64,000 nucleotides of DNA from a virus (IMGVR_UViG_3300028887_000002:148278-212277); one strand, 5' to 3'. Positions 1,272-57,338 are shown, counted from the first letter of the stretch. Program-made: numbers and translations. Notes: generated by a model not told the origin, from the letters alone.

Positions 1272-2633
1272 ATGAAGAAACAAGTTATAAGAATGACACA
1301 GAACGGACTTCAGAGACTTATCAGCGAGTCAGTCCGCAGGATTCTCAAGGAGGCTGAAAAGGCTACGGGAGTTACTGGTTATGAGGAAGATTTACCTGAC
1401 GGTTGGACAAAGTATACCGACAAGAATGGTAAGACATCTTATTTTGATGAAGACTACAATGAATACATAAAGACATATACAAGTGATGGGCAAGAACGTC
1501 TTGTACCAGTTAATGATTTTGGAAATACTGAATTTCGCGGAAATAAAGGTATAGCAAATTTGTACAAATCAACACGTGGTAATTTAAAACTCGGCGACTT
1601 TAGTCAACTTGGTACGAAGTATGAACCTTATAATGTTCCAGGTGTTAAAGACCGCGAACACACAAACCTCAACGACTGTACTGATACCATCAGACGTATC
1701 TATACCATCAAGGATGCCAGGAAGCGTGAAATGGCGTTGCAGTACTTATATATGGACTTGAAGGATGATGCTTTGAGATATGGTAAGAGGATTTATGAAG
1801 CGGTTTGTGCAAGATATATGACTTATGATATGTTTGACGAAGCTGAATTGGAATCTTTTTTGTTAAAAATGTTAAACATGTGTCTAGGAATCGAAAAGGG
1901 TGAAAGTGGTACGGCAATCGCATTTAATCCAAATATGGAAGATGTTTCATTCAAGACATATTTCGCGCAAAAAATTGCAGGTAATTTACGTAACATTATA
2001 GATGAAAAGAAGAAACGTACCTTCTATAAGATAACCAAGTACGAGGCAGACAAGATGATGTTGAAGAGGTTACCAAAACGCGAATTCAACAAGATAGTTG
2101 ATGATATAAGGAGTAAATATGAAATAAAAGAATTAAAGCCTGGCACTTACGATTCATTAGAAGATATGGAATACACAACCAATGGTGTGGTTACCAATGA
2201 AAAACATGCTGAAATGATGAAAAAAGCAAACAGACTTGCAATTGAAAAAGTTTGGGAATTATTCCCCGACAGGACGTTCAACTCATTTGCGGAAATTCAA
2301 ACCAGACAAATACCAGATGTATTTAGAGTAAAGAAAGGTTCAGAAACAGAAAATGACAATAGATTCATTGTTAATAAGAGTGATGACTTGGACGACCCAA
2401 CTAAAGGTGAATACAATTACTACACAACAATTTCAAAGAAACCGTCAATGGATACTGACAGTTTGGATGACTTATCAAAAACATTAGGTAACGACCTTTC
2501 AATGAGTTCAGAACCTGAATATGGTGATAAGACATTAGGCATTAAGAAGCAAGGCAAGTCAGAACGACAATATGCTTTTGAAGCAATCAACCGCATAGTC
2601 AGAAAAGTTTTGACGGAAATGAGAAAAAAGTAA
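1272..2633 (+). CDS. LTE-leader protein (putative head-internal protein) with sigma-region-2-like segment
   Basis: N-terminus MKKQVIRMTQNGLQRLISESVRRILKE and C-terminus EAINRIVRKVLTE match the leader and tag family. The internal FNPNMEDVSFKTYFAQKIAGNLRNII resembles sigma region 2. Confidence 0.55.
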   Translation: MKKQVIRMTQNGLQRLISESVRRILKEAEKATGVTGYEEDLPDGWTKYTDKNGKTSYFDEDYNEYIKTYTSDGQERLVPVNDFGNTEFRGNKGIANLYKSTRGNLKLGDFSQLGTKYEPYNVPGVKDREHTNLNDCTDTIRRIYTIKDARKREMALQYLYMDLKDDALRYGKRIYEAVCARYMTYDMFDEAELESFLLKMLNMCLGIEKGESGTAIAFNPNMEDVSFKTYFAQKIAGNLRNIIDEKKKRTFYKITKYEADKMMLKRLPKREFNKIVDDIRSKYEIKELKPGTYDSLEDMEYTTNGVVTNEKHAEMMKKANRLAIEKVWELFPDRTFNSFAEIQTRQIPDVFRVKKGSETENDNRFIVNKSDDLDDPTKGEYNYYTTISKKPSMDTDSLDDLSKTLGNDLSMSSEPEYGDKTLGIKKQGKSERQYAFEAINRIVRKVLTEMRKK

Positions 2634-2641
2634 GAATTTTC

Positions 2642-2672
2642 TTTGTTAATTTAAAAATATAAGTTATCTTTG
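2642..2672 (+). promoter_or_regulatory. Bacteroidota-type sigma70 promoter (-33 TTTG / -7 TATCTTTG)
   Basis: TTTG at 2642-2645, a 19-nt spacer, and TATCTTTG at 2665-2672, upstream of the SSB gene. Confidence 0.75.
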
Positions 2673-2787
2673 CCGCGTTGAGATTTTGTGAAGATGCTTG
2701 ATAGAAAGCAGTGACGGGGGAGAACATAATCCTCCGTCCTTTAAAATTAAACATGGAAGCAAAATAATGATTAAAAATTAATTTAAA

Positions 2788-3723
2788 ATGTCACAAGATG
2801 TAAAAGATTACACAGACGAAATTTTCGATGATGTAGAACTTGAAAACAAGAAAGAGAAAGTTGAAAAACCACAGTTCAATCCATCAAACTACCTTGATGT
2901 GAAATTGAAGGATGGTGAACAAACCAGAGAGATTAAGATTAGGATACTCCCAGTATCTGCAACAAACCAGCACATTGCTGTGCCAATCAGAATTCATGCG
3001 TTGACCAATGTTAACAAGGACCTTATCAAGTCAGGCTTTAAGAATTACACCTGTCTCAATGATGAACATTTGGAACATAAGGATGAAAGAGGCTGTCCAA
3101 TATGTAACATGGCAAAGGAATTATTCAAGAAGGCTAACGAGGAAACCGACCCTATAGTAAAGAAGGCGTTATGCAAGGAAGCATACAAGTATGAGCCGAA
3201 AGTAGCTTATGTTGTAAGGGTTATTGACCGTAGCAAGGAAGATGAAGGTGTGAAATTCTGGAGATTCAACAAGTACGACAATCATAACGGTATATACGAC
3301 AAGTTGAAGACTATTTACGCACAGCGCAACAAGGAATCTTTGGATGACGGTGATGGACCATACAATGTATTTGACCTTCACAATGGGCATGACTTTATAA
3401 TTACCCTTACCAAAGGTGAGAATACCAACCGCACGGAAGTTTCCATTATGGATTCTTCAAGACAGACTCCGCTTTCAAAGGATGAGAAAAAGATTGAAGA
3501 GTGGGTCAACGACACCAAGAAATGGGAAGACGTTTATACGGTAAAGCCATACGATTACCTTGACATTGTTGTCAATAGTGGTATTCCGATGTTTGACAAG
3601 GAGAAAGGTTGCTTTGTTGACAGGACTGAGGTTGAGAAGGAGGAAGAAGATGTTACATACGAAGCCCCAATGGTTGCCGAACAGCCTGTAGCCCCCAAGA
3701 ACGATGATGACCTTCCATTCTAA
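2788..3723 (+). CDS. Single-stranded DNA-binding protein, T4 gp32-like
   Basis: IKIRILP, CPIC Zn-type motif, YVVRVIDR..EDEGVKFW, FD...GHDFII and the acidic C-terminal tail DDDLPF. First gene of the replication block. Confidence 0.8.
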   Translation: MSQDVKDYTDEIFDDVELENKKEKVEKPQFNPSNYLDVKLKDGEQTREIKIRILPVSATNQHIAVPIRIHALTNVNKDLIKSGFKNYTCLNDEHLEHKDERGCPICNMAKELFKKANEETDPIVKKALCKEAYKYEPKVAYVVRVIDRSKEDEGVKFWRFNKYDNHNGIYDKLKTIYAQRNKESLDDGDGPYNVFDLHNGHDFIITLTKGENTNRTEVSIMDSSRQTPLSKDEKKIEEWVNDTKKWEDVYTVKPYDYLDIVVNSGIPMFDKEKGCFVDRTEVEKEEEDVTYEAPMVAEQPVAPKNDDDLPF

Positions 3724-3742
3724 TCTTTAATAGAAAAAATTT

Positions 3743-4351: not shown

Positions 4352-5584
4352 ATGACAAAGCAAGCGATTAAGAAGGGTGCTGGAACAGCATCGGTAACAA
4401 AGAAGGTCGGTCTTGCCGCCTTTAAGGAAAAGAAGGGTATGGTATATCACGAGGGTGATAATATCCAAAATACTGTAAGTAATGCAAACAAACCGTTGGA
4501 TTGGCTCATCATGCCAAAGGCTTTTAGTGATGCAACAAAACTCCCTGGTCTACCTAACGGTGTGGTAATCAGTGTGTTAGGACATTCCAACGTGGGTAAA
4601 TCTACATTATTGAACCACGCAATTGTGGCCGCACAGAGACAGGGTTACATACCAGTCATATTCGATACTGAGAATGCTTTTTCGTTTACTTACGCAAAGC
4701 AGATGGGTATGGAAGCCGAACCTATCTATGGTGATGTTGAAGTAGAAGTAGTAAACCCAGAAACTGGCGAGGTTACTATTGAAACGAGAAATGAAATTGT
4801 AAGTTGGGATGGCAATTTCCTTTACTACGATAACAAGCGTCTCATTGAACAGTACGGAAAATGGGATTATTCACAAGGCAAGGAAGTACAGAAGAGACGT
4901 AATATGGCAGTTATTGAGGATGTTGCAATGTGTATAAACGAACTCCTTGACGCACAGGAAGATGGTGAAATTGACATGGGATTTCTATTTGTATGGGATT
5001 CCGTAGGTTCATTATCTTCGTTCAAGACCTACAATGCAAAGGGTGTTGGCAACGCAATGTGGGATGCTGGTGCAATTAGTGTTGCGTTCAACCGCATAGT
5101 TAACGACCGAATACCATCTTCAAGAAAGGTGTCATCGAAATACACAAATACATTCCTTTACGTAAATAAGGTATGGATGGACGCTATGACCAATCCTGTC
5201 GGGCCTGCAATCATGCAGACAAAGGGCGGTAAGTCTCTTAAATACTCAACCCGTCTTGAGATACTTTTAGGCGGGCAACTGACTGCTGGTATTAAGAGAT
5301 TGACTGCGACATATAAGGGGCTTGATTATAGTTATGGTATCGAAACTAAGATTAAGATACTTAAAAATCATCTTGACGCACCGCATAATGTGTGTTATGA
5401 AGGCAAGATGATTGCTTCCGATTGTGGATTTATTGCACCTGATGAACTCGATGAATACAGAAAGAACCACATTGGTGACATACTCAAACAATTACAAGAG
5501 ATGTCAAATAGTAAGGAAACCATTGATGTAAAACAAGTTGAGTTTACTGAGAAACCTGATAGTGAGTATGAACAAGAAAATTAG
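4352..5584 (+). CDS. recA: RecA/UvsX-like recombinase
   Basis: Walker A GHSNVGKST, FDTENAF, Walker B VWDSVGSL, and GGKSLKYSTRLEI. Confidence 0.85.
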   Translation: MTKQAIKKGAGTASVTKKVGLAAFKEKKGMVYHEGDNIQNTVSNANKPLDWLIMPKAFSDATKLPGLPNGVVISVLGHSNVGKSTLLNHAIVAAQRQGYIPVIFDTENAFSFTYAKQMGMEAEPIYGDVEVEVVNPETGEVTIETRNEIVSWDGNFLYYDNKRLIEQYGKWDYSQGKEVQKRRNMAVIEDVAMCINELLDAQEDGEIDMGFLFVWDSVGSLSSFKTYNAKGVGNAMWDAGAISVAFNRIVNDRIPSSRKVSSKYTNTFLYVNKVWMDAMTNPVGPAIMQTKGGKSLKYSTRLEILLGGQLTAGIKRLTATYKGLDYSYGIETKIKILKNHLDAPHNVCYEGKMIASDCGFIAPDELDEYRKNHIGDILKQLQEMSNSKETIDVKQVEFTEKPDSEYEQEN

Positions 5585-5899: not shown

Positions 5900-7048
5900 A
5901 TGTCAACCCAACCGATACCCAACAAAATAAAGACTGCCAATCCCGAACTGTCCACCAAGAAGTTCAATACCTTACTGGTGGATGGTTCCAACCTATTGGA
6001 GGTATGTTTTAACGGGTACAAGAAGTTATCATCAAGCGGAAAGGAAATTGGTGCAATATACCAGTTCCTTCTTCAACTGAAACTTCTGTTACGGAAGGGT
6101 AACTTTAGGTACGTCTATTGTTTTTTTGACGGTGATTCTTCGGGACAATACCGTTTCAATTATTATCCAGACTACAAGGCGAACAGGGACAAGACTTTTG
6201 ATGAGGAGGAACTTTCTGACTATATGAAGGAAGTGAATGAACGTATCAGACGGATGCAAAAGCACTTCTTCAAACCCAAGAGGGATGAATCGGAAAAGGA
6301 AAACTTCTTTTGGCAAAGAAATGTTCTTATGGAATGCCTTGAGGAACTTGCGGTAAGGCAGTGTATTTGTGACAAGGTTGAAGCGGATGACCTTATAGGG
6401 TATTACGTAACACACAAGAAACCAGAGGAACGTATAGTAATATGCTCTAACGACAGAGACTTAACGCAGTTAATATCAGAAGATGTTATAGTGTATGTCC
6501 AGTCATTACATGATTTTGTGAATACGAAGAACCATACCAGTGTTATGGGGTATCATTATTCAAACGTCTTACTGAAGAAGATACTCTGCGGTGATACTTC
6601 CGACAATATTAAGGGGGTAAAGGGATTGGGTGAAAAAACATTATTCCAAAACTTCCCCGAACTTACGGAACGCCGTGTTACACTTAACGAGGTCATTACC
6701 AAGGCAAGTGAAATAAATGAGAAACGCAAGTCCGAGAAGAAGAAGCCGTTAAAGTGGGCAGAAAACATAGTAAATGGTACAACAGACGGTATACAGGGGG
6801 ATAAACTCTACGAGATAAACGAGAAGATTATAGACCTCAAGCATCCGTTGATGACAGATGAATCTGTTGAACTGATGGAATCCTTTATGTATGCCCCGAT
6901 GGATATGGAAGGACGTTCAATGGAGAACCTTTACAGGATACTGCTTGAAAATGAGATTGACGACCTGAAGGACGAGGGTGCTTTTGCAAACTTCTTCACG
7001 GAATTCAAATACCTAATTGACAAGGAGACAAAAAATTCACAAAACTAA
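5900..7048 (+). CDS. 5'-3' exonuclease / flap endonuclease (T4 RNase H / Pol I N-domain-like)
   Basis: LLVDGSNL, YKANR, EADDLI, SNDRDLTQL and the H3TH motif GDTSDNIKGVKGLGEKT. The start is moved from 5777 to ATG 5900 to remove the overlap with the upstream gene. Confidence 0.88.
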   Translation: MSTQPIPNKIKTANPELSTKKFNTLLVDGSNLLEVCFNGYKKLSSSGKEIGAIYQFLLQLKLLLRKGNFRYVYCFFDGDSSGQYRFNYYPDYKANRDKTFDEEELSDYMKEVNERIRRMQKHFFKPKRDESEKENFFWQRNVLMECLEELAVRQCICDKVEADDLIGYYVTHKKPEERIVICSNDRDLTQLISEDVIVYVQSLHDFVNTKNHTSVMGYHYSNVLLKKILCGDTSDNIKGVKGLGEKTLFQNFPELTERRVTLNEVITKASEINEKRKSEKKKPLKWAENIVNGTTDGIQGDKLYEINEKIIDLKHPLMTDESVELMESFMYAPMDMEGRSMENLYRILLENEIDDLKDEGAFANFFTEFKYLIDKETKNSQN

Positions 7049-7874: not shown

Positions 7875-9335
7875 ATGATGCAGAAAACGGTTAGCAGGGA
7901 TAACTTGGGTTATCTCGGAGAAGATTATCAGAGATTATTACTAAAAGCATTTATAGAGGACAAGGACTTCTTCAAGTCCATAGAGCCGATAGTTGACCAG
8001 AATATGTTCACGATTGACGAACTGAAGCGACTGGTCGGATTTATGAAGGAACGCTTTGAGAAGGTTGGTACGGTTCCGACATATTATGATATGGAACTAA
8101 TGGTAAAAAGTAAGATTACCGAACCAATAACAATGAATAAGGCACTTGCATTACTCAAATCCTTGAAGGAATCGGAAAACACTAATGGTCTTGACCTTAT
8201 TGAGACTGAATGTGAACATTTCTTCAAACAGCAGAACCTTACAAAGGCTATAAACAAGGCGACACAGATTATAAAGACTGGCGATACAAACCGCTACGAA
8301 GAGATTGAAGGTTTGATACAGGACGCCTTGAATATAAACACCAAGCAGGACTGGGATATCCATACCCCCGATGAGTTTTTGGATGCAGCATTAAGTGATG
8401 ATTTCAGGGATACCATACCCACTGGGGTTGACAAGATTGACAAGATACTTATGGGCGGTCTTGGAAAGGGTGAACTAGGTGTAATCATAAGTCCTAGTGG
8501 TATCGGTAAAACATCCGCGACTTCTGGGTTTGCAACATATGCTTCGACATTTGCAACAGAGGCCAATAACGACAAGGGCTTCAAGGTATTTCATCTTTTC
8601 TTTGAGGATAAGGAAACCGCAATCCTGCGCAAATATTATGCATACCTTACTGGCTACGAGTCAACTTCAATGTCAGACCCGACAGTTAGGTCGGCAGTAT
8701 GGCAGATGATTAAGGAAGATGAAGACATAAAGATGAAACGCAAGATGCTGGATGCTAACATAAGGCTCAAACGTGCTGAGACTGGCGGTTACACTTGCAG
8801 TGACCTATCAAGAGACCTTGACCATATGATTTCAATTGGCTTTAAACCCGATATGGTCATAGTGGATTACTTTGAATGTCTCAAGGTTGAAAGAAGTAAC
8901 AGTGGTGATGACAAGTGGTCTCGTGAAGAACTTACAATCCGCAGGCTTGAATCAATTGCCCACAAGTACAACGTTGCCCTTTGGGTTCCAGTTCAAGGCA
9001 CAAAGGATTCAATGAACGTCGAATATGTTGGTATGAACCAGGGTGGTGGTTCGGTTGCAAAGGTCCAGGTCGGACACATAATTCTGTCATTTGCCCGTAC
9101 AGATGAAATGAAGCCAAAGAATAAAATGAACATATACCTTCATAAGTTTAGAGGCGGGGCTATAACACAGACACAGTTTATAGGGGTCACATTCAATAAC
9201 GGTACTTGCCGATTTGATATGACCGAAAGCGAGATGGTTGACAAGACGCTGGATTTTCAACAAAATCAATCCAGTAAGCAGTTAACTGCCTCAATAGCAA
9301 GGAATGTGTATGAAAATTCAAAAGTCAAAAAATAA
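7875..9335 (+). CDS. dnaB: Replicative SF4 helicase (DnaB / T4 gp41-like)
   Basis: IPTGVDKIDKILMGGLGKGELGVI, Walker A SPSGIGKTS, Walker B DMVIVDYFE, and KFRGG near the C-terminus. Confidence 0.9.
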   Translation: MMQKTVSRDNLGYLGEDYQRLLLKAFIEDKDFFKSIEPIVDQNMFTIDELKRLVGFMKERFEKVGTVPTYYDMELMVKSKITEPITMNKALALLKSLKESENTNGLDLIETECEHFFKQQNLTKAINKATQIIKTGDTNRYEEIEGLIQDALNINTKQDWDIHTPDEFLDAALSDDFRDTIPTGVDKIDKILMGGLGKGELGVIISPSGIGKTSATSGFATYASTFATEANNDKGFKVFHLFFEDKETAILRKYYAYLTGYESTSMSDPTVRSAVWQMIKEDEDIKMKRKMLDANIRLKRAETGGYTCSDLSRDLDHMISIGFKPDMVIVDYFECLKVERSNSGDDKWSREELTIRRLESIAHKYNVALWVPVQGTKDSMNVEYVGMNQGGGSVAKVQVGHIILSFARTDEMKPKNKMNIYLHKFRGGAITQTQFIGVTFNNGTCRFDMTESEMVDKTLDFQQNQSSKQLTASIARNVYENSKVKK

Positions 9336-9399: not shown

Positions 9400-12300
9400 A
9401 TGAATTACGTTGATAATGAATTAGAAGAATGGCTAAATCATAATGATTTAGGTTTGAGTATTGTCAGAAAGAAATATCTTGCGACAATAGGTAGTGATGA
9501 AGAAGGAAATCCAGTACAGGAAACATTTAGTCAGTGGATGGATAGGATTTCAAATGGTAATGCCGACATAAGAAAGTTGCTGGTTGAAAAAAAGTTTTTA
9601 TTTGGTGGTAGAATACTTTCTAACAGAAAAATCATTGACAATGGAATTAAGTCAACATTAAGTAACTGCTATGTCCTTTCAGTTGATGATAACATAGAGA
9701 GTATATATAAATGCTGTTCGGATATGGCTAGGACATATTCATACGGCGGTGGAGTAGGCATTGACATATCGAAATTAAGACCAAGAGGGGCAGTTGTTCA
9801 TAATTCAGCGAAAACAACAAGCGGTGCGGTTTCATTTATGAAAACTTTTGACGTTGTAACAGGTACTATTGGACAAAGTGGACGGCGTGGTGCTTTGATG
9901 ATAAGTTTGGATATTAGACACCCTGATATTGAAGAATTTATTGATATTAAAGCAAATACTACTGAAATTACTAATGCGAACATTTCGGTCAGAGTAAACG
10001 ATGAATTTATGAGTGCTGTTGAAAACGACAAGGATTACATCCTTAGATATCCTTGCGAAACAACATTATCCGAAACAATTACAGAAAGTTTGCCATATGG
10101 TGAGGTTAAATATGAAAATGGTGTTTACCTAAAAAAAGTTAAGGCTAAGGAACTTTTTATGAAAATAGCCAAAAATAATTGGGATTATGGCGAACCTGGT
10201 GTTTTGTATTGGGATACTATATGTAACTACAACCTGATGAGCGAGAATCCTAACTTCAAGTATGCAGGAGTAAACCCTTGCGTTAGTGGCGATACCCTTA
10301 TTTTGACTGATACGGGTTACAAGCGTATTGATAGTCTGGTAGGCAAGAAAGTAAATGTTTGGAATGGCTACGAATGGTCTGAAGTTGAACCTAGAATTAC
10401 TGGACATAATCAAGAAATGGTATTGATAACCTTATCTAACGGAATTAAACTCAATTGTACCAAATACCACAAGTTTGTTCTAAAGGATGGTAGTCGTGTT
10501 GAAGCAAAAGATTTAAAAATCAAGGATAAGTTGGTCAAATGTAATTTCCCTATTATCAATAGCGGTGAAACACATGAAGAGAAACTTTATTATACCTTAG
10601 GATTTTTTGCTGGTGACGGTTACTTCAAGAGAGAGGATGAACCTGTAATATATCTATATGACAAAAAGAAGTGTGTTTTACCTTACATACTTGATGGGGT
10701 AGTAAGAGAGGATGAAAAAGAAAAACGTTTAGCAATTACACTCACGAAGCATAGAGAATATTTCAAGGATAAAGATTATGTACCTAACTGTGAAGTCTCA
10801 TTAAAGGATAGGCTTGAATGGCTTTCGGGTTTAATTGATTCTGATGGGAATTGCAATGATGCAAGTGGGTCAATAACAATTTCTTCAATTACCCGCCAGT
10901 TCCTACAAGATGTTCAGTTAATGCTGAATACCTTAGGTGTTGCATCAACAGTAAATGTTATGCATAAGTCGGGAGACCGTAAATTACCGAAACATAATAA
11001 GAATAACGAATATGGTATATATCATTGCAACGAAAGTTATCGTTTGTGCATTGGTGCTAGCCAGGTACAGATGCTATTGCAACTTGGTCTCTCATTACAT
11101 AGAGTAAAGACTAATCCTAATGTAAGCAGGAATGCAAGCCGATTTATTGAAATAGTAAATATTGAAGACAACTCAACTTGCGATACCGTTTATTGTTTCA
11201 ATGAGCCTAAGAATCACACTGGCATCTTTAATGGTTGTGTTACAGCACAGTGTGCCGAAGAACCCCTACCAGATGGCGGTGCTTGCTTGTTGGGTAGTAT
11301 GAATTTGATGTGTTATGTCAAGGATAATGGTGAGTTTGATTATGATGAATTTGGTAAAGATGTTAGAATTGCAACAACTGCTCTCAATGAAGTACAACAA
11401 GAAGGAATAGAACTTCACCCATTACCAATACAGAAACAAACAGCATCCCAATTCAGACAGATTGGGTTAGGTATATTTGATTTGGCTGGTGCGTTAATAA
11501 AGATGAAAGTACGTTATGGGTCAGAAGAGAGTTGCAAAGTTGCATATGATATAACACACACAATGTTACTGGAAGCATTTAAACAATCTTGTGACCTTAA
11601 TACTGAAGGTGTTGTATATGAAGGAATGTTTGATAGCGAAATGTATAAGAAACAGATTAAACCCTATCTTCCACCTAAATACATAAATCGTTACCCACTA
11701 AATAGCCAAATATTAACAATTGCACCAACTGGTACATTATCAACGATGGTTAATGCTACATCAGGTGGTGGCGAACCAATGTTTGCAACTTATTACACTA
11801 GAACCACAAAGTCATTATACGGAAAAGATGTTACCTTTAAAGTATATCCGCAATGTATTCTTGACTTTTATAATGGTGAGCCTGAAACATTGGATGATTT
11901 GCCAGACTATTTTATTACAGCAGATAAATTAGACTGGAGAGAACGTGTTAAGATGCAAGGCACGTTGCAGAAGAATATTGACGCTAGCATATCTTCAACG
12001 GTTAACCTTAAAGAAAGTAGTACTATTGAAGATGTGTTTAACATATATCTGACTGCATGGAAAGAAGGTCTTAAAGGTATTACAATATTCAGAGACAATT
12101 GCAAACGTGTTGCAATTTTATCAAAACCAGTACAAGAGATTGAACCTTTAACGGAATTCAAAACAACAACAGCGCCAAAACGACCAAAAGCATTGGAGGC
12201 TGATTTTTATCAGATAAAAGCAATGGGTGAGGACTTTAGGGTATTCGTAGGATTATATGAAGGTCGCCCCTATGAGATTTTTGCAATGCCTTGTGAGTCC

Positions 12301-12669
12301 TGTGACAAATTACCATCACATAAAGGACAGATAATTAAAACCAAGAAGCGTACATATAGATTTGTATCCGATTTAGTTGATATTGAAAACATAGCGTTGA
12401 ATGAAGAAGGTGATAGAATTTATCGTAATGTAACCCTTCATGTTTCAGGAGCATTAAGACATGGTATGCCTATTAAGTCAATAATTTCCCTTGAAGAAAA
12501 ATGTAATGATAATATAATATCATTCAATAAGGCGATATCAAGAGTATTGGCTAAATACTTGCCCAAGGACACTATTACTGATGACACTTGCCCAGAATGT
12601 GGTAATAAATTGGTATTTGAAAACGGTTGTAAACATTGTCCTTCATGTGGATACTCACAATGTGGATAA
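9400..12669 (+). CDS. nrdJ: Ribonucleoside-diphosphate reductase, probably class II (B12-dependent), intein-containing, with C-terminal TSCPD-like and Zn-ribbon domains
   Basis: FLFGGRIL, SNCYVL, GGGVGIDISKLRPRG, NP/CAEEPL (split by the intein), ACLLGSMNL, TIAPTGTLS, DASISSTVN, GLKGITIFRD and CPECG...CPSCGYSQC. No ATP cone and no adjacent nrdB. Confidence 0.85.
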   Translation: MNYVDNELEEWLNHNDLGLSIVRKKYLATIGSDEEGNPVQETFSQWMDRISNGNADIRKLLVEKKFLFGGRILSNRKIIDNGIKSTLSNCYVLSVDDNIESIYKCCSDMARTYSYGGGVGIDISKLRPRGAVVHNSAKTTSGAVSFMKTFDVVTGTIGQSGRRGALMISLDIRHPDIEEFIDIKANTTEITNANISVRVNDEFMSAVENDKDYILRYPCETTLSETITESLPYGEVKYENGVYLKKVKAKELFMKIAKNNWDYGEPGVLYWDTICNYNLMSENPNFKYAGVNPCVSGDTLILTDTGYKRIDSLVGKKVNVWNGYEWSEVEPRITGHNQEMVLITLSNGIKLNCTKYHKFVLKDGSRVEAKDLKIKDKLVKCNFPIINSGETHEEKLYYTLGFFAGDGYFKREDEPVIYLYDKKKCVLPYILDGVVREDEKEKRLAITLTKHREYFKDKDYVPNCEVSLKDRLEWLSGLIDSDGNCNDASGSITISSITRQFLQDVQLMLNTLGVASTVNVMHKSGDRKLPKHNKNNEYGIYHCNESYRLCIGASQVQMLLQLGLSLHRVKTNPNVSRNASRFIEIVNIEDNSTCDTVYCFNEPKNHTGIFNGCVTAQCAEEPLPDGGACLLGSMNLMCYVKDNGEFDYDEFGKDVRIATTALNEVQQEGIELHPLPIQKQTASQFRQIGLGIFDLAGALIKMKVRYGSEESCKVAYDITHTMLLEAFKQSCDLNTEGVVYEGMFDSEMYKKQIKPYLPPKYINRYPLNSQILTIAPTGTLSTMVNATSGGGEPMFATYYTRTTKSLYGKDVTFKVYPQCILDFYNGEPETLDDLPDYFITADKLDWRERVKMQGTLQKNIDASISSTVNLKESSTIEDVFNIYLTAWKEGLKGITIFRDNCKRVAILSKPVQEIEPLTEFKTTTAPKRPKALEADFYQIKAMGEDFRVFVGLYEGRPYEIFAMPCESCDKLPSHKGQIIKTKKRTYRFVSDLVDIENIALNEEGDRIYRNVTLHVSGALRHGMPIKSIISLEEKCNDNIISFNKAISRVLAKYLPKDTITDDTCPECGNKLVFENGCKHCPSCGYSQCG
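10279..11250 (+). mobile_element. Intein with LAGLIDADG homing endonuclease (324 aa) at the RNR catalytic Cys
   Basis: Inserted at NP|C. Block A CVSGDTLI, block B CTKYHKF, endonuclease motifs LGFFAGDG and LSGLIDSDG, block F VYCFNEPKNHTGIFNG, ending TAQ|CAEE. Confidence 0.93.
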
Positions 12670-45083: not shown

Positions 45084-45764
45084 ATGATTGAGAGTGAATG
45101 TAATAGTGTAAGCCTTTATTTTAAGGACATTGAGAAGATAAACCACCTGAAGCGCGAGGAGGAATACGAACTGGCTCGTAGGATAAGGGAAGGTGACGAG
45201 GAAGCCCTCAATACCCTTATAAAGTCCAACCTCAAGTTTGTAGTTTCTATGGCAAAGGAGTATACAAAGTATGGCGTACCCATAGCAGACTTGATTTCAG
45301 CAGGTAATATTGGACTTATTACAGCAGCAAAAAAGTACAGCGAATCCAAGGGGGTAAAACTTATTTCCTATGCTGTGTGGTGGATAAGAGATTCAATTAA
45401 CGAATGTGTCAAACAATATAAAAAGAAAAACATAACCAATGAAGAGGCTAATACCTACAGCATGGAGGAATACCGTGAATATGCTGACAAGATAAACGCA
45501 TCATTTGAGGAAGACGTGGTGGATGCACTTAACAACCGTTCAGCCATTGAAACCTTGATGACCTGTCTTAATGAACGTGAGGTTAAGGTGTTGACGCTAT
45601 ACTTTGGACTATACGGTGAAAAGGAAATGAACCTCAACGAAATATCGGATGTAATAAACGTAAGCGCCGAGCGCACAAGACAGATACTGCATATGTCGCT
45701 TGACAAACTCAGGGTGAGCGCACTTTGTAGCAAGGAATTTGAAAATCTGAAAAATTTGTGCTAA
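45084..45764 (+). CDS. Phage-encoded sigma-70-family RNA polymerase sigma factor
   Basis: Region 1.2 VSLYFKDI...L.REEEYELARRI.EGDEEA; region 2 NLKFVVS.AK.Y....DLISAGNIGLI.AAKKY....GVKLISYAVWWIR; region 4 LNEREVKVL.LYFGL....MNL.EIS..I.VS.ER.RQI...SL.KLR. Confidence 0.92.
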   Translation: MIESECNSVSLYFKDIEKINHLKREEEYELARRIREGDEEALNTLIKSNLKFVVSMAKEYTKYGVPIADLISAGNIGLITAAKKYSESKGVKLISYAVWWIRDSINECVKQYKKKNITNEEANTYSMEEYREYADKINASFEEDVVDALNNRSAIETLMTCLNEREVKVLTLYFGLYGEKEMNLNEISDVINVSAERTRQILHMSLDKLRVSALCSKEFENLKNLC

Positions 45765-46798: not shown

Positions 46799-46830
46799 GT
46801 CAATCATTTTCCTCAATATATATCTTCCCT

Positions 46831-46865
46831 CTCTTTTCAGCCAAGGTTGGAAAGAGATTTTTTTT
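46831..46865 (+). terminator. Intrinsic terminator
   Basis: CTCTTTTCAGCC-aa-GGTTGGAAAGAG followed by a T-run. Confidence 0.7.
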
Positions 46866-46886: not shown

Positions 46887-46893
46887 TATTTAT
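46887..46893 (+). promoter_or_regulatory. Putative late promoter element TATTTAT
   Basis: TACTATTTATAAT, 32 nt before ATG 46926 and just after a terminator. Confidence 0.65.
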
Positions 46894-46925: not shown

Positions 46926-47642
46926 ATGAAACAAAGAATTAGACTTACAGAATCTGACCTAAGGAATATTGTCAGAGAAGCAATCAACGAACTTGATTGG
47001 AAAACTTATGCTAATGCTGCAAATAAGTCACTTAAAGGTAACTATAAAATGCGTGAAAAAGGCAAATCCGATTCTTATAAGAATAACCGTGCAAAAAGAT
47101 TTGCTGATGCAGCCGTTAATGCTTTTAATCAAGAGTTTGGATACGACAATCGTACCCGTGGACATCACCAGTCATATAATATGGATTCATATTTACCTAC
47201 AGATGAATTTTATTATTCAGATGGCACTAGAGGAAGTTTTTTTGAAAGATGGTTAAAATATAGAAATATTGATATAGATGAATTGACTAATGATGAAATA
47301 GATAAGTTATATAACGAATTTCTTAGTAGTGAAGAAACTATAACATCAATGACCGTTAATAACACTGCTAGGGGATGGGATGGTGATACATATGGCGATA
47401 GTTTCACGGATACTTATACAATCAGCCCATATAAGTATAGTGAAACAGGTGAGGGTGATGAGTGGGACGAAACAGCATATCCTGATAAAGAAACTATTGA
47501 TGCTAGAAATAGAGGAAATAGAGAAGTTAGAGACTTTAAAAATGGTAAATATCATTATGAAAAAGGAGAGGGTTGGAAGAATCGGAGGAAAAATAATATT
47601 GATGAAACCATATCTCGTGTTATTCGCAATTATATTCGTTAA
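46926..47642 (+). CDS. LTE-leader protein (putative head-internal cargo)
   Basis: MKQRIRLTESDLRNIVREAINE ... IDETISRVIRNYIR; a stand-alone unit with its own promoter element and terminator. Confidence 0.65.
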   Translation: MKQRIRLTESDLRNIVREAINELDWKTYANAANKSLKGNYKMREKGKSDSYKNNRAKRFADAAVNAFNQEFGYDNRTRGHHQSYNMDSYLPTDEFYYSDGTRGSFFERWLKYRNIDIDELTNDEIDKLYNEFLSSEETITSMTVNNTARGWDGDTYGDSFTDTYTISPYKYSETGEGDEWDETAYPDKETIDARNRGNREVRDFKNGKYHYEKGEGWKNRRKNNIDETISRVIRNYIR

Positions 47643-47697: not shown

Positions 47698-47726
47698 AAG
47701 CGAACCATAATTGATTCGCTTTTTTT
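47698..47726 (+). terminator. Intrinsic terminator
   Basis: AAGCGAA-ccataattga-TTCGCTT followed by TTTTT. Confidence 0.7.
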
Positions 47727-47749
47727 ATGCACTATTTGGTACATATTAC

Positions 47750-48675: not shown

Positions 48676-50685
48676 ATGAACAATATTACGACCAATAGAC
48701 CCCTATTGACCGAGTCGGCGGTAGACCGTGCCATTGATGCCATGATACAGCGCAACCTGCCCGACAATGCCAAAGGTTATATGGAAATCCCGATAAACCA
48801 ACTCGCAAAAGAACATCCTGAGATATTGAACAATGTGGCGCTCAACCAAACACCAGAAGTCATGGAAAAATACGGCGGTTTGAAACTGAAGGATTTCATC
48901 AGAGTATCAATTATGCAGATGTTCGACATTGGACGCGGTAAGGGTCCCAAGAAGTACATGAGGGGTATTTTCCGAATAATGCTGGATGAGATAAAATGTC
49001 TCCGCAACCCCGACATGAACCAAATCAACCAATTGAAAAACGATGTCATGTACATAATGCAAGCGTCAGAGAACGGCATCGACCAGGAAGCGGAAAATAT
49101 GGATGGCAACCTCAACGGTTGGTCGTTATCTAAAATAAACCAAACATTTAGGGAGAAACGCAAGAAATTCTTTGCGTCAATAAGGGACAGGCTAGGCGGA
49201 AAAAGTTTCAACGACAAACCGAGATACAGCAAAGTCGTAATAAATACGCATGAGGATGCTATGAAATACGCAAACTACGTTAAGTGGTGTATTACATTTG
49301 ATAATCCAACTAATTACGATTCGTACACGCAAGGGGGAAGGCGCTTTTATATATTTCTCCGTGATGGTTTTGAAAATGTACCGCGACAGATGGGTGAGAA
49401 CTGTCCTTTTGACGACTACGGGATGAGTATGGTGTCGGTATTGGTCGATACGGAGGGTAATATAAGCATAATTACCACAAGGTGGAACCATGACCATGAC
49501 GGTGAATTAAACCCGCCTTCACCCGAACAGGTTGAGATGGTTATGAATTTAATGGGTGTTAATTTATATAGGGAATGTCCGCCTTATACTAAAGAGGAAC
49601 TGAAGTCAATGGGTATTACCACGTTTGAAGATGTCCCCGAACTGCTTGTACAGGGGGTTGACCCAAGGGAGATATTCGAAAGGATTTATGCATTCTCCGA
49701 AGGTTTCGCATGGGTTGCGTTGAACGGCAAATGTAATTACCTCACCTCAGAAGGTCAGTTGTTGTCACCTAACCAGTGGTTTGATGGTGCTTATGATTTC
49801 TACGAAGGGTTCGCAAAGGTTTGGTTGAACGGCAAATGGAACTTCATAACTACCGAAGGTCAGTTGTTGTCACCTAACCAGTGGTTTGATGGTGCTGATG
49901 ATTTCTCCGAAGGGTTCGCAAAGGTTGAGTTGAACGGCAAATGTAATTACCTCACCTCAGAAGGTCAGTTGTTGTCGCCTAACCAATGGTTTGATTATTG
50001 TTATAATTTTTACAAAGGGTTTGCTGTGGTTGAGTTGAATAATAAAAGTTATCTTCTTCGTAGAGATGGATGGTTGTGTGATTATAACACAAAGCAACCA
50101 ATCCCCGAACTGAATGAGAATAAAGTTAATAAGCGCACCTTCTATATAAACGAAACAACAATAAACGACTTGTTTGATGCAAAGGATATGACTGAATACA
50201 AGTTCATATCAAATGTAAAGAAATTCCTTTCTCAGTTGATTGATGACCCAGTGAATGCTCAGCCGAGCAGGGTTTTAAAGTTTAATGGTCTCGATAGGAA
50301 GGAACTCATTAGTAAACTTATGGACAATGGCATTGTTATAAAGAAGGAACGCATATCCGACAGGGATGAGAATGGAAATCCCAAGACGGCGACAATGCTT
50401 GTGTCATTCAAGATTCCAAGGGAGGATTTCGACCATAAGATGAAGAAATTATACATAAGCCTCTTTGAAAATGTACAATCCCCCTATGAGTTCATATGTG
50501 AGGATGGTGGTGCTGGTGCATCGGGAGGTGCTTGCGCTGGCGGAGACTGTGGGTGTATGTCCTGTGGTGAGGCTTGTTCTGCGGGCGGTGCTACAAGTGC
50601 TGATACCAGTGGACAATTTATAACGCCGTTGTTCGGTACGATAGTTAGAAGAAAAAAGAAAAAATCTAAGAAAAATGCTGAGTGA
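48676..50685 (+). CDS. Multi-domain LTE-site protein with WG beta-repeats (possible head-internal polyprotein)
   Basis: LLTES at the N-terminus; a KWCIT...Y......FYIFL domain; 3.5 repeats of FSEGFA.V.LNGK.NY....GQLLSPNQWFD; then ELNE|NKVNKRTFYINE and a Gly/Cys-rich tail. Confidence 0.65.
   Translation: MNNITTNRPLLTESAVDRAIDAMIQRNLPDNAKGYMEIPINQLAKEHPEILNNVALNQTPEVMEKYGGLKLKDFIRVSIMQMFDIGRGKGPKKYMRGIFRIMLDEIKCLRNPDMNQINQLKNDVMYIMQASENGIDQEAENMDGNLNGWSLSKINQTFREKRKKFFASIRDRLGGKSFNDKPRYSKVVINTHEDAMKYANYVKWCITFDNPTNYDSYTQGGRRFYIFLRDGFENVPRQMGENCPFDDYGMSMVSVLVDTEGNISIITTRWNHDHDGELNPPSPEQVEMVMNLMGVNLYRECPPYTKEELKSMGITTFEDVPELLVQGVDPREIFERIYAFSEGFAWVALNGKCNYLTSEGQLLSPNQWFDGAYDFYEGFAKVWLNGKWNFITTEGQLLSPNQWFDGADDFSEGFAKVELNGKCNYLTSEGQLLSPNQWFDYCYNFYKGFAVVELNNKSYLLRRDGWLCDYNTKQPIPELNENKVNKRTFYINETTINDLFDAKDMTEYKFISNVKKFLSQLIDDPVNAQPSRVLKFNGLDRKELISKLMDNGIVIKKERISDRDENGNPKTATMLVSFKIPREDFDHKMKKLYISLFENVQSPYEFICEDGGAGASGGACAGGDCGCMSCGEACSAGGATSADTSGQFITPLFGTIVRRKKKKSKKNAE
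49693..50070 (+). repeat. 105-nt tandem coding repeats (WG repeats)
   Basis: Units start at 49693, 49798, 49903 and 50008 (last one partial). Units 1 and 3 are nearly identical at the DNA level. Confidence 0.9.
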
Positions 50686-50872: not shown

Positions 50873-50879
50873 TATTTAT
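50873..50879 (+). promoter_or_regulatory. Putative late promoter element TATTTAT
   Basis: ATATATTTATAAATA, 20 nt before ATG 50900. Confidence 0.6.
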
Positions 50880-50899: not shown

Positions 50900-51736
50900 A
50901 TGATAACAAGAAGAATCCCGATAACAGAACTCGCCCAGATTTTAATGGAGAGTACACAGAATGCATCCGAACCGAAGTTGGGCAAGAACGTTGCAAGTGA
51001 CGACAAGAAGAACAACGAAAAGGGTGTAAAGGACATGATGAAGGCAACAGCAGACTACAATAAGGTCGCTGAAAGAAATACCGAACCCGAAAACGAGAAC
51101 GGTATTGACTACAACTGCACTACACTTGAATACAGGTTCACTTCAGAACCCCCGAAGTCTTATAAGGACAGGGTAAAGAACCTTGCAGTAAACGGAAACC
51201 TCACCAACGACACTGATGAATCTCAAAGTACCAAGGGTAACGAGAAGTTCTATAACAACCGCAAGGAAATATCGAACAAGCGTGAAACCGAACGTAAGAA
51301 AAAGGCTGACGCTGGCTTGGTAGGCAGGGAACTGAAGGACGATGAGCAATATAGCCACAAGTCGTTCACTGTTTTTGCCGAAAGTGCCAACAAGGTAACA
51401 AAAAGACTTCATTTCAAGAACACCACATTCCTCACGGAGGCAGACCTTCTGAAGAGAATCCCCGATGACTACAAGAGAAAGGACGAGGTATTCTGCGTAA
51501 AGGACGCAAGCGGAACCGAATATATGCTCGAATGCAAGATTGACCCGACCTTCAAGATACCGCAGTTAAAGGTTATAGGTTCAATCAACGACAAGGTTAT
51601 CAATGAACAGTTCGACAGAATAAATCAACTTTCATCATATGACAGGAGCGACTTTAAGAATAACAGTGCTTCATGCAACGACAAGGTTAGTGAGATGCAC
51701 GAAATGCTTGAGGCTGTAAGACGCTGTCAAAAATAA
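50900..51736 (+). CDS. Charged hypothetical protein with multiple xxE sites (putative head/scaffold-associated)
   Basis: IPITELAQILMES, VFAES..., INEQFDRINQL; follows a TATTTAT element. Confidence 0.55.
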   Translation: MITRRIPITELAQILMESTQNASEPKLGKNVASDDKKNNEKGVKDMMKATADYNKVAERNTEPENENGIDYNCTTLEYRFTSEPPKSYKDRVKNLAVNGNLTNDTDESQSTKGNEKFYNNRKEISNKRETERKKKADAGLVGRELKDDEQYSHKSFTVFAESANKVTKRLHFKNTTFLTEADLLKRIPDDYKRKDEVFCVKDASGTEYMLECKIDPTFKIPQLKVIGSINDKVINEQFDRINQLSSYDRSDFKNNSASCNDKVSEMHEMLEAVRRCQK

Positions 51737-51766: not shown

Positions 51767-52165
51767 ATGACAACACTTGAAATCATATTGACATTCGTAA
51801 GTTCAATTATTGTAACCTTACTTGGTGGACAGTCAATCTTGTTCTACAGGCAAAACAAGAAGATGAAGAAACTTGAAAATAAAGAAAAGGAGATTAGCAA
51901 TGACGCAAAGGTTTCCGATGGCTGGCAGGAATATGTCACTGAACTCAAAGGTGAAAAAAAGGAACTGAAGGATGAAATAGAGATGTTAAAGAGGGAACAT
52001 AACGAAGAAAAGGAGAAACTTGAAAAGACCATCAGTGACTATCGTGACAAATATTATGCTTGCCGTGAGGAAAAGGAATCACTAAAAGTTGAAAACGTCA
52101 AACTCACCCTTCTCAAGTGTGAAATTCCGAGTTGCCCCACAAGAAAACCACCTTCAGGATATTAA
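51767..52165 (+). CDS. Holin-like membrane protein (N-terminal TM plus coiled coil)
   Basis: MTTLEIILTFVSSIIVTLLGG TM segment, coiled coil, and C-terminal CEIPSCPTRKPP. Confidence 0.45.
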   Translation: MTTLEIILTFVSSIIVTLLGGQSILFYRQNKKMKKLENKEKEISNDAKVSDGWQEYVTELKGEKKELKDEIEMLKREHNEEKEKLEKTISDYRDKYYACREEKESLKVENVKLTLLKCEIPSCPTRKPPSGY

Positions 52166-52190: not shown

Positions 52191-52562
52191 ATGAAACGAA
52201 CAATTAAACTCACAGAAAACGATTTAAAAAATGTAGTTAAAAAGGTTATTAATGAAATGGTTGATAATTCAATATTTCAGCAGTTTGACGACCATGGCGA
52301 TTTTTATTCGGGCTTAGCATATGTTTATAAGAATGGTTGTGGATATAATTATATAAAAAGTAATGGTCAATTACTATTTCCTAACAAATGGTTACAATGG
52401 GCATGGGATTTTAGTCCTAATGGAAAAGCAAGAGTAAGATACAATGATGAAGAATTTTTAATAAATACAAAAGGTGAAGTTCTTGACTATAATGGCACGG
52501 TAGATAATAATAAATTATTGGAAGAGGCGATTACCCGCGCAATTCGCAAACTCTTGCGTTAA
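52191..52562 (+). CDS. LTE-leader protein with WG repeat
   Basis: MKRTIKLTENDLKNVVKKVINE; FYSGLAYV.....YNYI...GQLLFPNKW; C-terminal LEEAITRAIRKLLR. Confidence 0.7.
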   Translation: MKRTIKLTENDLKNVVKKVINEMVDNSIFQQFDDHGDFYSGLAYVYKNGCGYNYIKSNGQLLFPNKWLQWAWDFSPNGKARVRYNDEEFLINTKGEVLDYNGTVDNNKLLEEAITRAIRKLLR

Positions 52563-52590: not shown

Positions 52591-52623
52591 AAAAAATCGA
52601 CCCAGCAAGGTTGATTTTTTTTT
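52591..52623 (+). terminator. Intrinsic terminator (possibly bidirectional)
   Basis: AAAAAATCGACC-cagcaa-GGTTGATTTTTT. Confidence 0.7.
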
Positions 52624-54329: not shown

Positions 54330-54599
54330 ATGAGAAAGATAATACAACTAACTGAATCCGACTTGCAAAATATAGTCACGGAATCCGTAAAGAGAATATT
54401 GACTGAAAATGATGACAATTCCAATAACCCCGAAAACCTTCCAAGATTAGCAGAACTTGGTGATGGTACTTATGATGGAACTTTGAAGGCTCATTGTTTC
54501 AATTATAACGGAAAAGACTATTGGTTGGAAACTGGAATTCGCACAATGATACCACAACCGTGGACGGTCACTATCAAAAATGGAAAAGTAGTGAAATAG
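54330..54599 (+). CDS. Small LTE-leader protein
   Basis: MRKIIQLTESDLQNIVTESVKRILTE followed by a ~60-aa beta-rich cargo. Confidence 0.7.
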   Translation: MRKIIQLTESDLQNIVTESVKRILTENDDNSNNPENLPRLAELGDGTYDGTLKAHCFNYNGKDYWLETGIRTMIPQPWTVTIKNGKVVK

Positions 54600-54620: not shown

Positions 54621-54658
54621 AAAAAAGCACCCCAAACCAACGAGGTGCTTTTCTTTTT
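54621..54658. terminator. Bidirectional terminator between convergent genes
   Basis: AAAAGCACC-ccaaaccaacga-GGTGCTTTT with A and T runs on both sides. Confidence 0.7.
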
Positions 54659-54672
54659 ACGCCAAATTATTT

Positions 54673-55458: not shown

Positions 55459-55509
55459 TGTAAAATAATATTTTGCATTAAATATAGGGAAAAATTGGAA
55501 ATTTCTCAA

Positions 55510-55516
55510 TATTTAT
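55510..55516 (+). promoter_or_regulatory. Putative late promoter element TATTTAT
   Basis: AATATTTATATAT, 28 nt before ATG 55545. Confidence 0.5.
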
Positions 55517-55544
55517 ATATTATAATAATTAAGAATTTGGAAAT

Positions 55545-57338
55545 ATGAACGGACACGGACTGTTTGACAGATATATGGATGACAATACCTTAAGGCTGTT
55601 GTCGGAAGACATTGAGGAGGTATACGATTTCCCTCGCAAGGCTGATACTGACGATATCCCAGAAAATGTTAAGGAAGAACTCACTGATGATGTAGATACG
55701 CTCACTAATAAGGTGTCTGAAATGAATAATACACCAGATGAATATGATAACGAAGAAGTATATAGTGAACTCGATGTGGTTAGAAATATTTTAGAATATA
55801 AAATGGGCTACAAGTTATGTACCGACAGGCTTTCAGCCATTGAACAACTTAATCCGAGGATAATAGTGAAGCGTGTCGCTGACAGTGACCTGATACCAAG
55901 GAAAAATATCGGCGAACCGAACGAGGAGAATATAGAAAGCATTTCAACCAAGATATTCAAACCAGAAAACATAAACAAATTGAGACAAATTAGCAAGGAA
56001 TATAATATTTCGGATGAAGAATTTGAAGATTTTTTAATCTCAAAAGGTTATGGTACTGGTCTGCATAGCGCGTCATTCAAAAGTAAATATACGCCACGAG
56101 AAGCAAAGGAGTCAAAGTTAGTTGCAGTGCCCGAACCCATTAAAATAAAAACCAATGGAAAGATTGACGGTAGTGGAAACTTCGCATATTATGAACTCGA
56201 AGACAACAATAAGATTGGCAAGAAAATAGTCAGTCCAGTCGGACGTTTCAACGGTTCATACATTAGTACTGGCAACAACTTTGTGGATGAAACAACCAAT
56301 ACAACATTTCATATTTTTAGGAAAGAAACTTCAGCCGACTACTTATACGGATATTTTAGAGACCGTGAGAAGGGGGATGAAGGATTATCAGAAAAGGATG
56401 TTGAAACGCAAATTGGTGGAAATGAAATGTGGAAGCAGAGGCTTGGAAATGCACTGCAAAAACATTCGATTATGAAAGGCGACCGTAAAGCCAATTCACA
56501 ATATTACCCATTCACATACAAGGATTATTTCTTTGTAAAGGATATTGACGGAACTTATGTTTGTATCAGGGTAGTGACCGCGCAAAGCAAACTGGGATAT
56601 CGTGAAAAAGGACAGTTAATGTATAAGGCTAAAAGTATTGATGTCGTTTACCTTGAAGGCTATATATTGCAAACTCCGCCACCATCAGCACTTGAAGATG
56701 AAACTGGTAATGACAAATCAATGTCCGAGGCAAAATTGATACGATACATAGATGACACTATAGCATATATCAGTTCTAACGAGTCCATTGACCCACGAAC
56801 ACCTGATTATAAGGGGTTTGTTGCTGACCCCAACAAGTATTGGGTCAAGATGGATAGTTTTATAAATTCAACCACTGTTATGATTAACACACTTGCCGCA
56901 TTTAGGGCAATATTCAAGCATATTGATATGAATATCGAAGACGCCAAAAATCTGCCTGACAGCGAAAAGTCTATGTATTATAGGGCTGAGATAAACCTAA
57001 AGAACCCTGAAAGGCTAAAAAATTATCTTTATGATTTCCAAAAACACTTTTATGGCGGTAACTGGCGCAAGATTGAAGGAATTGACCAGTATGCCAACAA
57101 CCCGAAAGTTTATGTCATAGTCCGCAGATGGTGTATACGACAATTGGAAGTTATAAAGAGTTTGGTTAAAAGAGATAAACCTAACTACGATGATGCTATT
57201 AGGACAAACCCAAAACAATTCGAAAAGTCCATTTGGAAACTTTATGGGTCTGACATCTCCATTGGCGATAACACTACTTCGCAAGGCCAAGATGTCATGG
57301 AGTCGATAAGACGCAGGTTGCTTGAATATTGCGACTAA
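55545..57338 (+). CDS. Large hypothetical protein with LSE site and C-terminal tag (putative head-internal)
   Basis: LRLLSEDIEE near the N-terminus and VMESIRRRLLE at the C-terminus. Confidence 0.55.
   Translation: MNGHGLFDRYMDDNTLRLLSEDIEEVYDFPRKADTDDIPENVKEELTDDVDTLTNKVSEMNNTPDEYDNEEVYSELDVVRNILEYKMGYKLCTDRLSAIEQLNPRIIVKRVADSDLIPRKNIGEPNEENIESISTKIFKPENINKLRQISKEYNISDEEFEDFLISKGYGTGLHSASFKSKYTPREAKESKLVAVPEPIKIKTNGKIDGSGNFAYYELEDNNKIGKKIVSPVGRFNGSYISTGNNFVDETTNTTFHIFRKETSADYLYGYFRDREKGDEGLSEKDVETQIGGNEMWKQRLGNALQKHSIMKGDRKANSQYYPFTYKDYFFVKDIDGTYVCIRVVTAQSKLGYREKGQLMYKAKSIDVVYLEGYILQTPPPSALEDETGNDKSMSEAKLIRYIDDTIAYISSNESIDPRTPDYKGFVADPNKYWVKMDSFINSTTVMINTLAAFRAIFKHIDMNIEDAKNLPDSEKSMYYRAEINLKNPERLKNYLYDFQKHFYGGNWRKIEGIDQYANNPKVYVIVRRWCIRQLEVIKSLVKRDKPNYDDAIRTNPKQFEKSIWKLYGSDISIGDNTTSQGQDVMESIRRRLLEYCD

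Follow-up and report, generated by a model that had tools for sequence, protein, structure and literature searches.

A shared leader on unrelated proteins of a giant rumen phage, a candidate head-assembly tag also found on IS1595 elements of host chromosomes

The stretch of DNA analysed here (64,000 nucleotides, IMGVR_UViG_3300028887_000002:148278-212277, hereafter the window) comes from a phage record of 339,287 bp, which has a G+C content of 39% and direct repeats at its termini and belongs to a giant T4-like phage of rumen Prevotella. Four genes of the window, starting at positions 1272, 46926, 52191 and 54330, begin with nearly the same leader and continue into unrelated bodies. We give roughly even credence to the reading that this leader is a head-assembly tag which would be cut off by the prohead protease, i.e., the principle of the T4 targeting sequence in a longer, helical and massively expanded form. 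Capsid targeting and cleavage had been proposed in an initial annotation of the window. The proposal is now partly backed by the presence of an S77 protease and a gp23-type capsid protein, the [LIVM]-x-E end of the leader, a promoter element shared with head genes and the position of leader genes in head-gene clusters, while some of its elements, among them a set of short cleavage sites and a strictly N-terminal location, were not supported. The leaders and their genes are the following, in window coordinates and with E values of the leader-derived profile:

1272..1352, plus strand: leader of gene 1272-2633, 27 aa, ending in ILKE (E 1.2e-10)
1272..2633, plus strand: 453-aa leader-bearing protein, body without known-family match
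46926..46991, plus strand: leader of gene 46926-47642, short 22-aa form, ending in INE (E 3e-12)
46926..47642, plus strand: 238-aa protein of the 'LDWKTYANAA' family, with a relative in the head-gene cluster of the related phage G017 (L148:8425-8919)
52191..52256, plus strand: leader of gene 52191-52562, short 22-aa form, ending in INE (E 2.6e-9)
52191..52562, plus strand: 123-aa protein composed of leader helix, linker, WG-repeat beta body (Pfam PF14903) and C-terminal half-motif helix
54330..54407, plus strand: leader of gene 54330-54599, 26 aa, ending in LTE (E 3.5e-13)
54330..54599, plus strand: 89-aa leader-bearing protein, body of no known family

The four open reading frames do begin with the leaders originally quoted for them, and the likeness of these leaders is real and far beyond chance. 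The scan of the whole 339-kb genome with a hidden Markov model of the leaders, as envisaged in the initial annotation, yielded 12 strong copies (E 2e-14 to 3e-9) and a probable one, and no further match with E < 0.2. Those located outside the window were:

genome 27041(-), 27097(+), 115901(+), 251077(-), 261467(-) and 298819(+): strong copies
genome 147369-147812: C-terminal strong copy in a 147-aa protein, just upstream of the window
genome 234511-236640: internal strong copy, at residues 592-616 of a 709-aa protein
genome 215830(-): probable copy (E 6e-4)

The location was N-terminal in all four window copies and in 10 of the 12 strong copies of the genome. The leader comes in two lengths, a 26-aa form ending in ...ESVKRILxE and a 22-aa form ending in ...xxINE, and both finish in [IL]-x-E despite differing by one helical turn. 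That the bodies are unrelated was borne out, with the exceptions of a paralog pair formed by 46926 and its recent duplicate at genome 251077, and of a weak similarity over 51 aa between the 1272 protein and the tail of an ART-like protein (genome 234511-236640). Among 10 paralogs of this phage, the leader showed a pS of 0.72 versus a pN of 0.33. As the synonymous sites are saturated and yet the residues are kept, the leader peptide, not the DNA alone, is under selection. Concerning the five shorter [LI]xE sites that had been grouped with the leaders (46283, 48451, 48676, 50900 and 55545), none of them scored with a profile built from 219 motif copies. An [LI]xE tripeptide occurs within the first 35 residues of 174 of the 403 phage genes (43%), versus 33% in random internal stretches. 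These five sites are due to chance and do not form part of the feature.

The motif has the consensus KKxIRLTESDLHRIVKESVKRILNE. It is composed of a short strand and an amphipathic helix, after which comes a flexible linker. In a logo of 214 copies, the best conserved positions were E9 (97%), L12, E18 (86%), S19 and E26 (88%), and position 24, which is P3 of the terminal Glu, was occupied by L, I, M or V in 92% of the copies. Immediately after E26 the information drops from 3.4 to under 0.6 bit, the next residues being rich in G, S and D. The near-invariant [LIVM]-x-E end fits, by sequence, the L/I-x-Glu motif cleaved by gp21. The terminal Glu was retained in 91–94% of the N-terminal and internal copies versus 6 of 13 C-terminal ones (Fisher p 3e-5); its loss from C-terminal copies would be expected of a Glu required for the release of what follows.

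The location of the motif within proteins was scored in an unbiased set of genomic loci. For viruses these were the 80 top-ranking loci, and the contigs bearing them reached about 413 kb. The 133 viral copies were N-terminal (106, 80%), internal (24, 18%) or C-terminal (3, 2%). Full-length internal copies keep a Met exactly at the would-be start in 59% of the cases, and the NENKQYK-like peptide that precedes internal copies corresponds to the in-frame translation of the 5′ leader of free-standing genes (AATAACGAAAATAAACAATATAAA). With the start Met kept and the translated 5′ leader in front, internal copies look like fusions of once-separate cassettes. In another 75 internal copies there is only the helix, and the 5′ part is lacking. 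At L022:5970-6000, and in many database proteins, the linker ENKQYKxNTNM before internal copies is the translated form of the conserved 5′ untranslated leader, which suggests gene fusions or internal starts.

The leader genes share a putative promoter element with the head genes. In this genome, the heptamer TATTTAT lies 25–50 nt ahead of the start codon of the capsid, scaffold-like and protease genes, and in relatives it is found before capsid, scaffold-like, portal and protease genes. Upstream of genes here, it occurs 54 times in the sense versus 25 in the antisense orientation, and it precedes 66 of the 106 N-terminal viral motif genes. Within the window it is also placed ahead of the gp25 baseplate cluster and of other large genes in the same run, and it was not found before the gp32, thymidine kinase, UvsX-like, RNase H-like and helicase genes. 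We infer from this that TATTTAT marks a late or structural promoter class. Three of its occurrences in the window concern the leader genes:

804..810, plus strand: TATTTAT promoter-like element before gene 830-1234; gene 1272 begins 37 nt downstream of that gene
46887..46893, plus strand: TATTTAT promoter-like element, 39 nt ahead of gene 46926; the leader sequence AATAACGAAATAAAA comes next
50873..50879, plus strand: TATTTAT element before 50900, ahead of the run 50900-51736, 51767-52165, 52191-52562

So, the earlier statement that several leader genes follow this element holds for 46926, which has its own copy at −39, but not in the strict sense for 1272, 52191 and 54330, which have none of their own. 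The location of 1272 and 52191 downstream of TATTTAT-bearing genes (830 and 50900, respectively) argues for their co-transcription with these: the element at 804..810 probably also drives 1272, and that at 50873..50879 is likely the promoter of the three-gene run. Likewise, 46926 had been described as a self-contained promoter-gene-terminator unit, of which the promoter is present, as well as a terminator-like hairpin before it (46830-46857), but the 3′ side is weak, with only a weak hairpin plus a T-run after the stop codon, at about 47700-47727. A terminator-like hairpin follows the 52191 gene, at 52591-52620.

The leader genes are also found next to head genes. The S77 prohead protease of this phage is encoded, interrupted by an intein, at genome 22353-24155, and the gp23-type capsid protein at genome 257402-259345; the protease is present as well in the relatives G017, G022 and G024. 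The capsid gene is directly preceded by the gene of a 513-aa acidic, helical protein, whose position and conservation in relatives mark it as the putative scaffold. As in the motif, the conserved N-terminal helices of this protein end on Glu, with (I/L)L(S/N/T)E, and the stretch that comes next is acidic and variable. The scaffold-like and capsid genes are immediately preceded by a leader gene (genome 261117-261467), which has the same orientation. The scaffold-like/capsid pair is kept in eight relatives, and seven of them display one to four leader genes within about 3 kb. The gene order in G017 is TerL, portal (PF07230), a 537-aa gene, two leader genes, S77 protease, a third leader gene, scaffold-like and capsid; one of the two leader genes belongs, as 46926 does, to the 'LDWKTYANAA' family, and the third one starts 5 nt after the protease gene. 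In T4, the small core proteins gp67 and gp68 are encoded between the portal gene 20 and the protease gene 21. Motif genes of G017, G001, G005, G009, G021 and G022 are similarly placed between portal and protease, scaffold or capsid genes, whereas no sequence similarity to gp67 or gp68 was found with Pfam, PHROGs and NCBIfam, a core role of their products being suggested by position only.

Concerning inteins, they interrupt both the S77 protease and the ribonucleotide reductase (window 9400-12669) of this phage. The one in the reductase matches LAGLIDADG homing-endonuclease domains, and the one in the protease was recognised in the sequence itself and through LAGLIDADG matches of the G022 homolog. 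Among the protease homologs, those of G022 and G024 contain inteins and that of G017 does not.

In public databases, the motif heads a very large set of uncharacterised proteins. A word-indexed search gave 5,632 motif matches among 8,000 scored candidates, and an exhaustive search gave 5,870 cluster representatives at E <= 1e-3, 1,131 of them at 1e-10; the related-locus search used a tighter alignment than the 12 leaders of this phage. A T4-type gp23 capsid protein was encoded in all nine motif-bearing viral records that were at least 90% complete, the shorter viral contigs tested being fragments with an estimated completeness of 17–53%. Each complete genome contains 8–30 copies of the motif. 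The closest cultured relatives of the capsid protein are about 40% identical, over part of the protein only. When tagged proteins were compared by tblastn with 50,697 phage records, weak matches were obtained in one uncultured huge phage only, and a megablast of 20 kb of the window gave no match. We read the tag as belonging to a clade of uncultured T4-like jumbo phages (300–410 kb) of Prevotellaceae.

If the leader is a head-assembly tag, its mode of action could be as follows. The tagged proteins would be synthesized late, under promoters of the class that also serves the capsid, scaffold, portal and protease genes, and the helix would dock them into the scaffolding core of the prohead. The S77 (gp21-type) protease would then cut after the terminal Glu of [LIVM]-x-E, freeing the body inside the head, and further cuts might take place after the LTE and V/I-K-E sites within the tag. 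Some bodies could be core or assembly proteins, like gp67 and gp68 of T4, and others may stay as internal head proteins. The initial annotation had gone one step further and had the cargo loaded for injection. This is not supported. The T4 core proteins encoded at the corresponding position undergo degradation and are not injected. At the DNA level, the promoter-leader-tag block would also act as a homology anchor for the swapping or fusing of bodies, as it is one conserved DNA block before unrelated coding sequence, and such a role would explain the internal copies.

The T4 precedent is close in several respects. The varied internal proteins of T4 share the targeting sequence only, and cleavage occurs after L/I-x-E (PMC3012670, PMC9026906). 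As in the capsid targeting sequences of IPI, IPII and IPIII and in the Alt propeptide, there is a short N-terminal tag on otherwise unrelated proteins, L/I-x-Glu stands at the end of the tag, a gp21-type (S77) prohead protease is encoded by the phage, and the tag constitutes a conserved anchor in hypervariable loci. In T4, moreover, Alt is trimmed at both ends and the core proteins undergo multiple cuts (PMC3012670, PMC9026906). The two-sided trimming of Alt has a counterpart in the C-terminal copies and in the motif-bearing ART-like protein (genome 234511-236640). On the other hand, here 8–30 tagged genes per genome are scattered, in contrast to the single locus of T4; there are internal and tandem copies; the tag is found on IS1595 passengers in host chromosomes; and packaging and cleavage are predicted from sequence. 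The jumbo phages phiKZ, 201phi2-1 and SPN3US also have many head proteins with propeptides, which are processed by gp175/gp245-type proteases that cut after Glu, with redundant sites inside (PMC9026906, PMC7411985). Unlike the leaders studied here, those propeptides are not one conserved sequence, their cleavage motif is S/A-x-E, and they belong to a different phage lineage.

Several observations weigh against the head-tag reading. First, although the motif is mostly N-terminal, it is not strictly so: about 20% of the copies in viral loci are internal or C-terminal, and most of the top database matches, which are enriched for multi-copy proteins, hold two or three copies. Second, the tag is 22–26 aa long, compared to the 10–19 aa of T4 capsid targeting sequences (PMC9026906). 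Third, the comparison of the scaffold N-terminus with the motif was not significant, with negative profile scores for the scaffold-like proteins of nine phages, and the idea of the tag as a copy of that N-terminus was dropped on these scores. Fourth, the alignment of the capsid protein to T4 gp23* shows two equally possible I-x-E maturation sites, IKE44 and IYE60, which carry little weight because [LI]xE is a very common tripeptide. Fifth, the ribonucleotide reductase gene at 9400 is another of those preceded by TATTTAT, and the element is thus not exclusive to structural genes. Sixth, the motif was present in no phage of the INPHARED collection, and a full-text literature search for LTESDL retrieved no paper with the motif. 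Finally, the tagged gene appears as a passenger of IS1595 elements in chromosomes of cultured Prevotella and Segatella, where there is no prohead. This was unforeseen in the earlier reading, and these copies weaken the claim that the tag works solely in proheads.

The bacterial occurrences are better considered in some detail. Bacterial genome assemblies contained the motif at 44 loci, nearly all of them in Prevotellaceae or other Bacteroidales, including the cultured isolates Segatella bryantii DSM 11371, Prevotella sp. MA2016 and Prevotella sp. tf2-5. Most of these loci share 0–2 open reading frames with the phage, and their surroundings are ordinary bacterial genes. A convergent IS1595-family transposase follows the motif gene immediately in 24 of the 44 bacterial loci and in 12 of the 80 viral ones; it contains the DDE_Tnp_IS1595 domain PF12762 (E 9e-43 and 5e-46) and the zinc ribbon PF12760. 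The best-defined element was:

L016, Prevotellaceae metagenome-assembled genome, 4984-7939: IS1595 element with inverted-repeat arms at 4984-5045 and 7878-7939 (62 nt) and a perfect 28-bp terminal repeat

It encloses a divergent open reading frame, the motif gene (6001-6597) and the transposase. Similar elements occur in L022 and L023, from Prevotella isolates, and in L021, from Segatella bryantii, where the copy is degenerate. As the flanks of the L016 element are A/T runs (ATTTTTTT and TTTTAATT), no clear 8-bp target-site duplication could be called there. Between the copies of different isolates, conservation is confined to the transposase, the IS end or ends and a block of 92 nt that spans the motif, everything else having been exchanged. 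Free-standing bacterial copies have TGATATTTAT plus a AATAACGAA...TACGTATT leader. This sequence is nearly identical to that upstream of the G017 leader genes and can be placed in one class with the capsid-gene promoters. The body family NEIGDTxxGQ, which is borne by an IS, is also present in the head cluster of G001. In L014, the divergent second passenger is homologous to a phage gene (20527-21282).

The transposase with its zinc ribbon and the terminal inverted repeats enclosing passenger genes are those expected of IS1595-family elements. What differs from their usual passengers is the carriage of a phage-type gene, with a phage structural-gene promoter and the candidate head tag, and the exchange of the passenger region around a constant tag block. 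Because a phage structural-gene promoter is carried, the IS copies are better explained as transposon-borne phage late-gene cassettes than as ordinary cellular genes. A speculative extension, to which we attach a rather low probability, is that the IS1595-borne tagged gene stays silent until phage late transcription and is then loaded into progeny heads as a 'Trojan' cargo. Such cargo would serve either the host, by virion sabotage, or the transposon, by hitch-hiking between cells, and the phage, for its part, would possess a head-cargo system that is open to expansion and comprises thousands of cargo families.

These bacterial copies are also among the reasons to consider a different function of the peptide. 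The helix could be a generic docking or oligomerisation device, unrelated to the head and never cut, with a host protein, DNA or other copies of itself as the common hub. This would agree with its presence on IS1595 elements of bacterial chromosomes, with N-terminal, internal and C-terminal copies, often two or three per protein, with the half-motif helix at the opposite end of several window proteins, and with a pattern that is that of an ordinary amphipathic helix. Nevertheless, it leaves without explanation the strong conservation of the terminal Glu and its loss mainly where nothing follows, the promoter in common with head genes, and the conserved place between portal and protease, scaffold or capsid genes. 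Against it are also the T4-type capsid protein in every one of the nine complete motif-bearing viral records tested, and the fact that even the bacterial copies have the phage structural-gene promoter. We regard it as unlikely, though it is the alternative to be taken most seriously.

A smaller probability corresponds to the leader being recognised by the Clp machinery that the phage itself encodes, so that late proteins would be degraded or unfolded at a set time. The genome does encode two ClpP-family proteins, a ClpX-like protein and a ClpB/C-like AAA+ protein (Clp set at genome 19152-19754, 243315-243845, 252753-253886 and 29129-31507), and a degradation tag would work in uninfected bacteria too. 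N-terminal starts of the Met-basic-hydrophobic type and basic ends at the C-terminus are reminiscent of ClpX signal classes. However, Clp signals are short and unstructured, whereas here 20 helix residues are conserved and the end lies 26 residues from the terminus; besides, neither the head-cluster synteny nor the [LIVM]-x-E end would be accounted for. The ClpX-like gene is about 3.5 kb from the capsid gene.

Least of all do we favour a mobile expression or recombination cassette acting as DNA or RNA (promoter, 5′ leader and first codons) with the peptide as a functionless by-product, which would suit the limited conservation between IS copies, unrelated outside the IS ends, motif block and transposase, and the translated 5′ leader with its start Met before internal copies, but which is opposed by the saturated pS next to near-invariant key residues, by the 75 helix-only internal copies without 5′ part and by the existence of C-terminal copies; a cassette role is compatible with a function of the peptide, as in T4 internal-protein loci, and is no substitute for it. 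None of the three alternatives covers the position-dependent terminal Glu, the head-cluster synteny and the promoter together.

If the leader is indeed a head-assembly tag, a single profile would suffice to point out the proteins inside the head in an entire clade of uncultured giant phages of rumen and gut. These would amount to more than 5,800 protein clusters, nearly all lacking a known fold or function, and some of them may enter the host together with the DNA. The T4 targeting principle would then be scaled from three or four proteins to dozens per genome, and a ready-made packaging tag would be available for these phages. The link to transposons is new in itself. On this evidence, phage late-gene cassettes move between phage and host chromosomes on an insertion sequence, and proteins that are encoded by the host or the transposon and target the phage head can be envisaged.

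Concerning the bodies of the four leader proteins, searches of Pfam, PHROGs and NCBIfam revealed no family except the WG repeats of 52191. A single-sequence AF2 model of this protein, of low confidence (pLDDT 57.7) and used for the order of secondary-structure elements only, placed a helix at residues 9-24, strands at 41-92 and a helix at 110-122. Half-motif helices are present at the C-terminus of the proteins 1272 (2583-2630), 46926 (47595-47639) and 52191 (52515-52559); the three end helices are basic and amphipathic (AINRIVRKVLTEMRKK, ETISRVIRNYIR and EAITRAIRKLLR), like the second half of the leader. The cargo classes named at the outset were sigma-like proteins, WG-repeat proteins and unknown folds. 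The WG repeats were confirmed in 52191, but no leader protein matched a sigma factor, and the sigma-like class is not supported: the sole sigma-70-family match among the window proteins scanned is 45084-45764, which is leaderless. That factor, with regions 1.2, 2 and 4, is a candidate reader of the TATTTAT promoters.

The ART-PolyVal match of the 709-aa protein (genome 234511-236640) was sub-threshold, with 24 bits versus the Pfam cut-off of 31.2. For relatives of the leader proteins, the scaffold-like protein and ten large tagged proteins of other phages, Pfam, PHROGs and NCBIfam gave nothing beyond WG repeats and this sub-threshold ART-PolyVal. A PDB sequence search with the 1272 protein gave a sole, WW-like and non-significant match (E 0.41). 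A WW-domain-like stretch (PDGW...DEDYNEY) is common to the 1272 protein (window 1389-1481) and the ART-like tail (genome 234511-234800). Another protein with WG repeats, which is not a member of the motif set, is encoded at window 48676-50685; it is 669 aa long and contains three such repeats, followed by a Gly/Cys/Ala-rich end (GGAGASGGACAGGDCGCMSCGEACSAGG) and then a lysine run.

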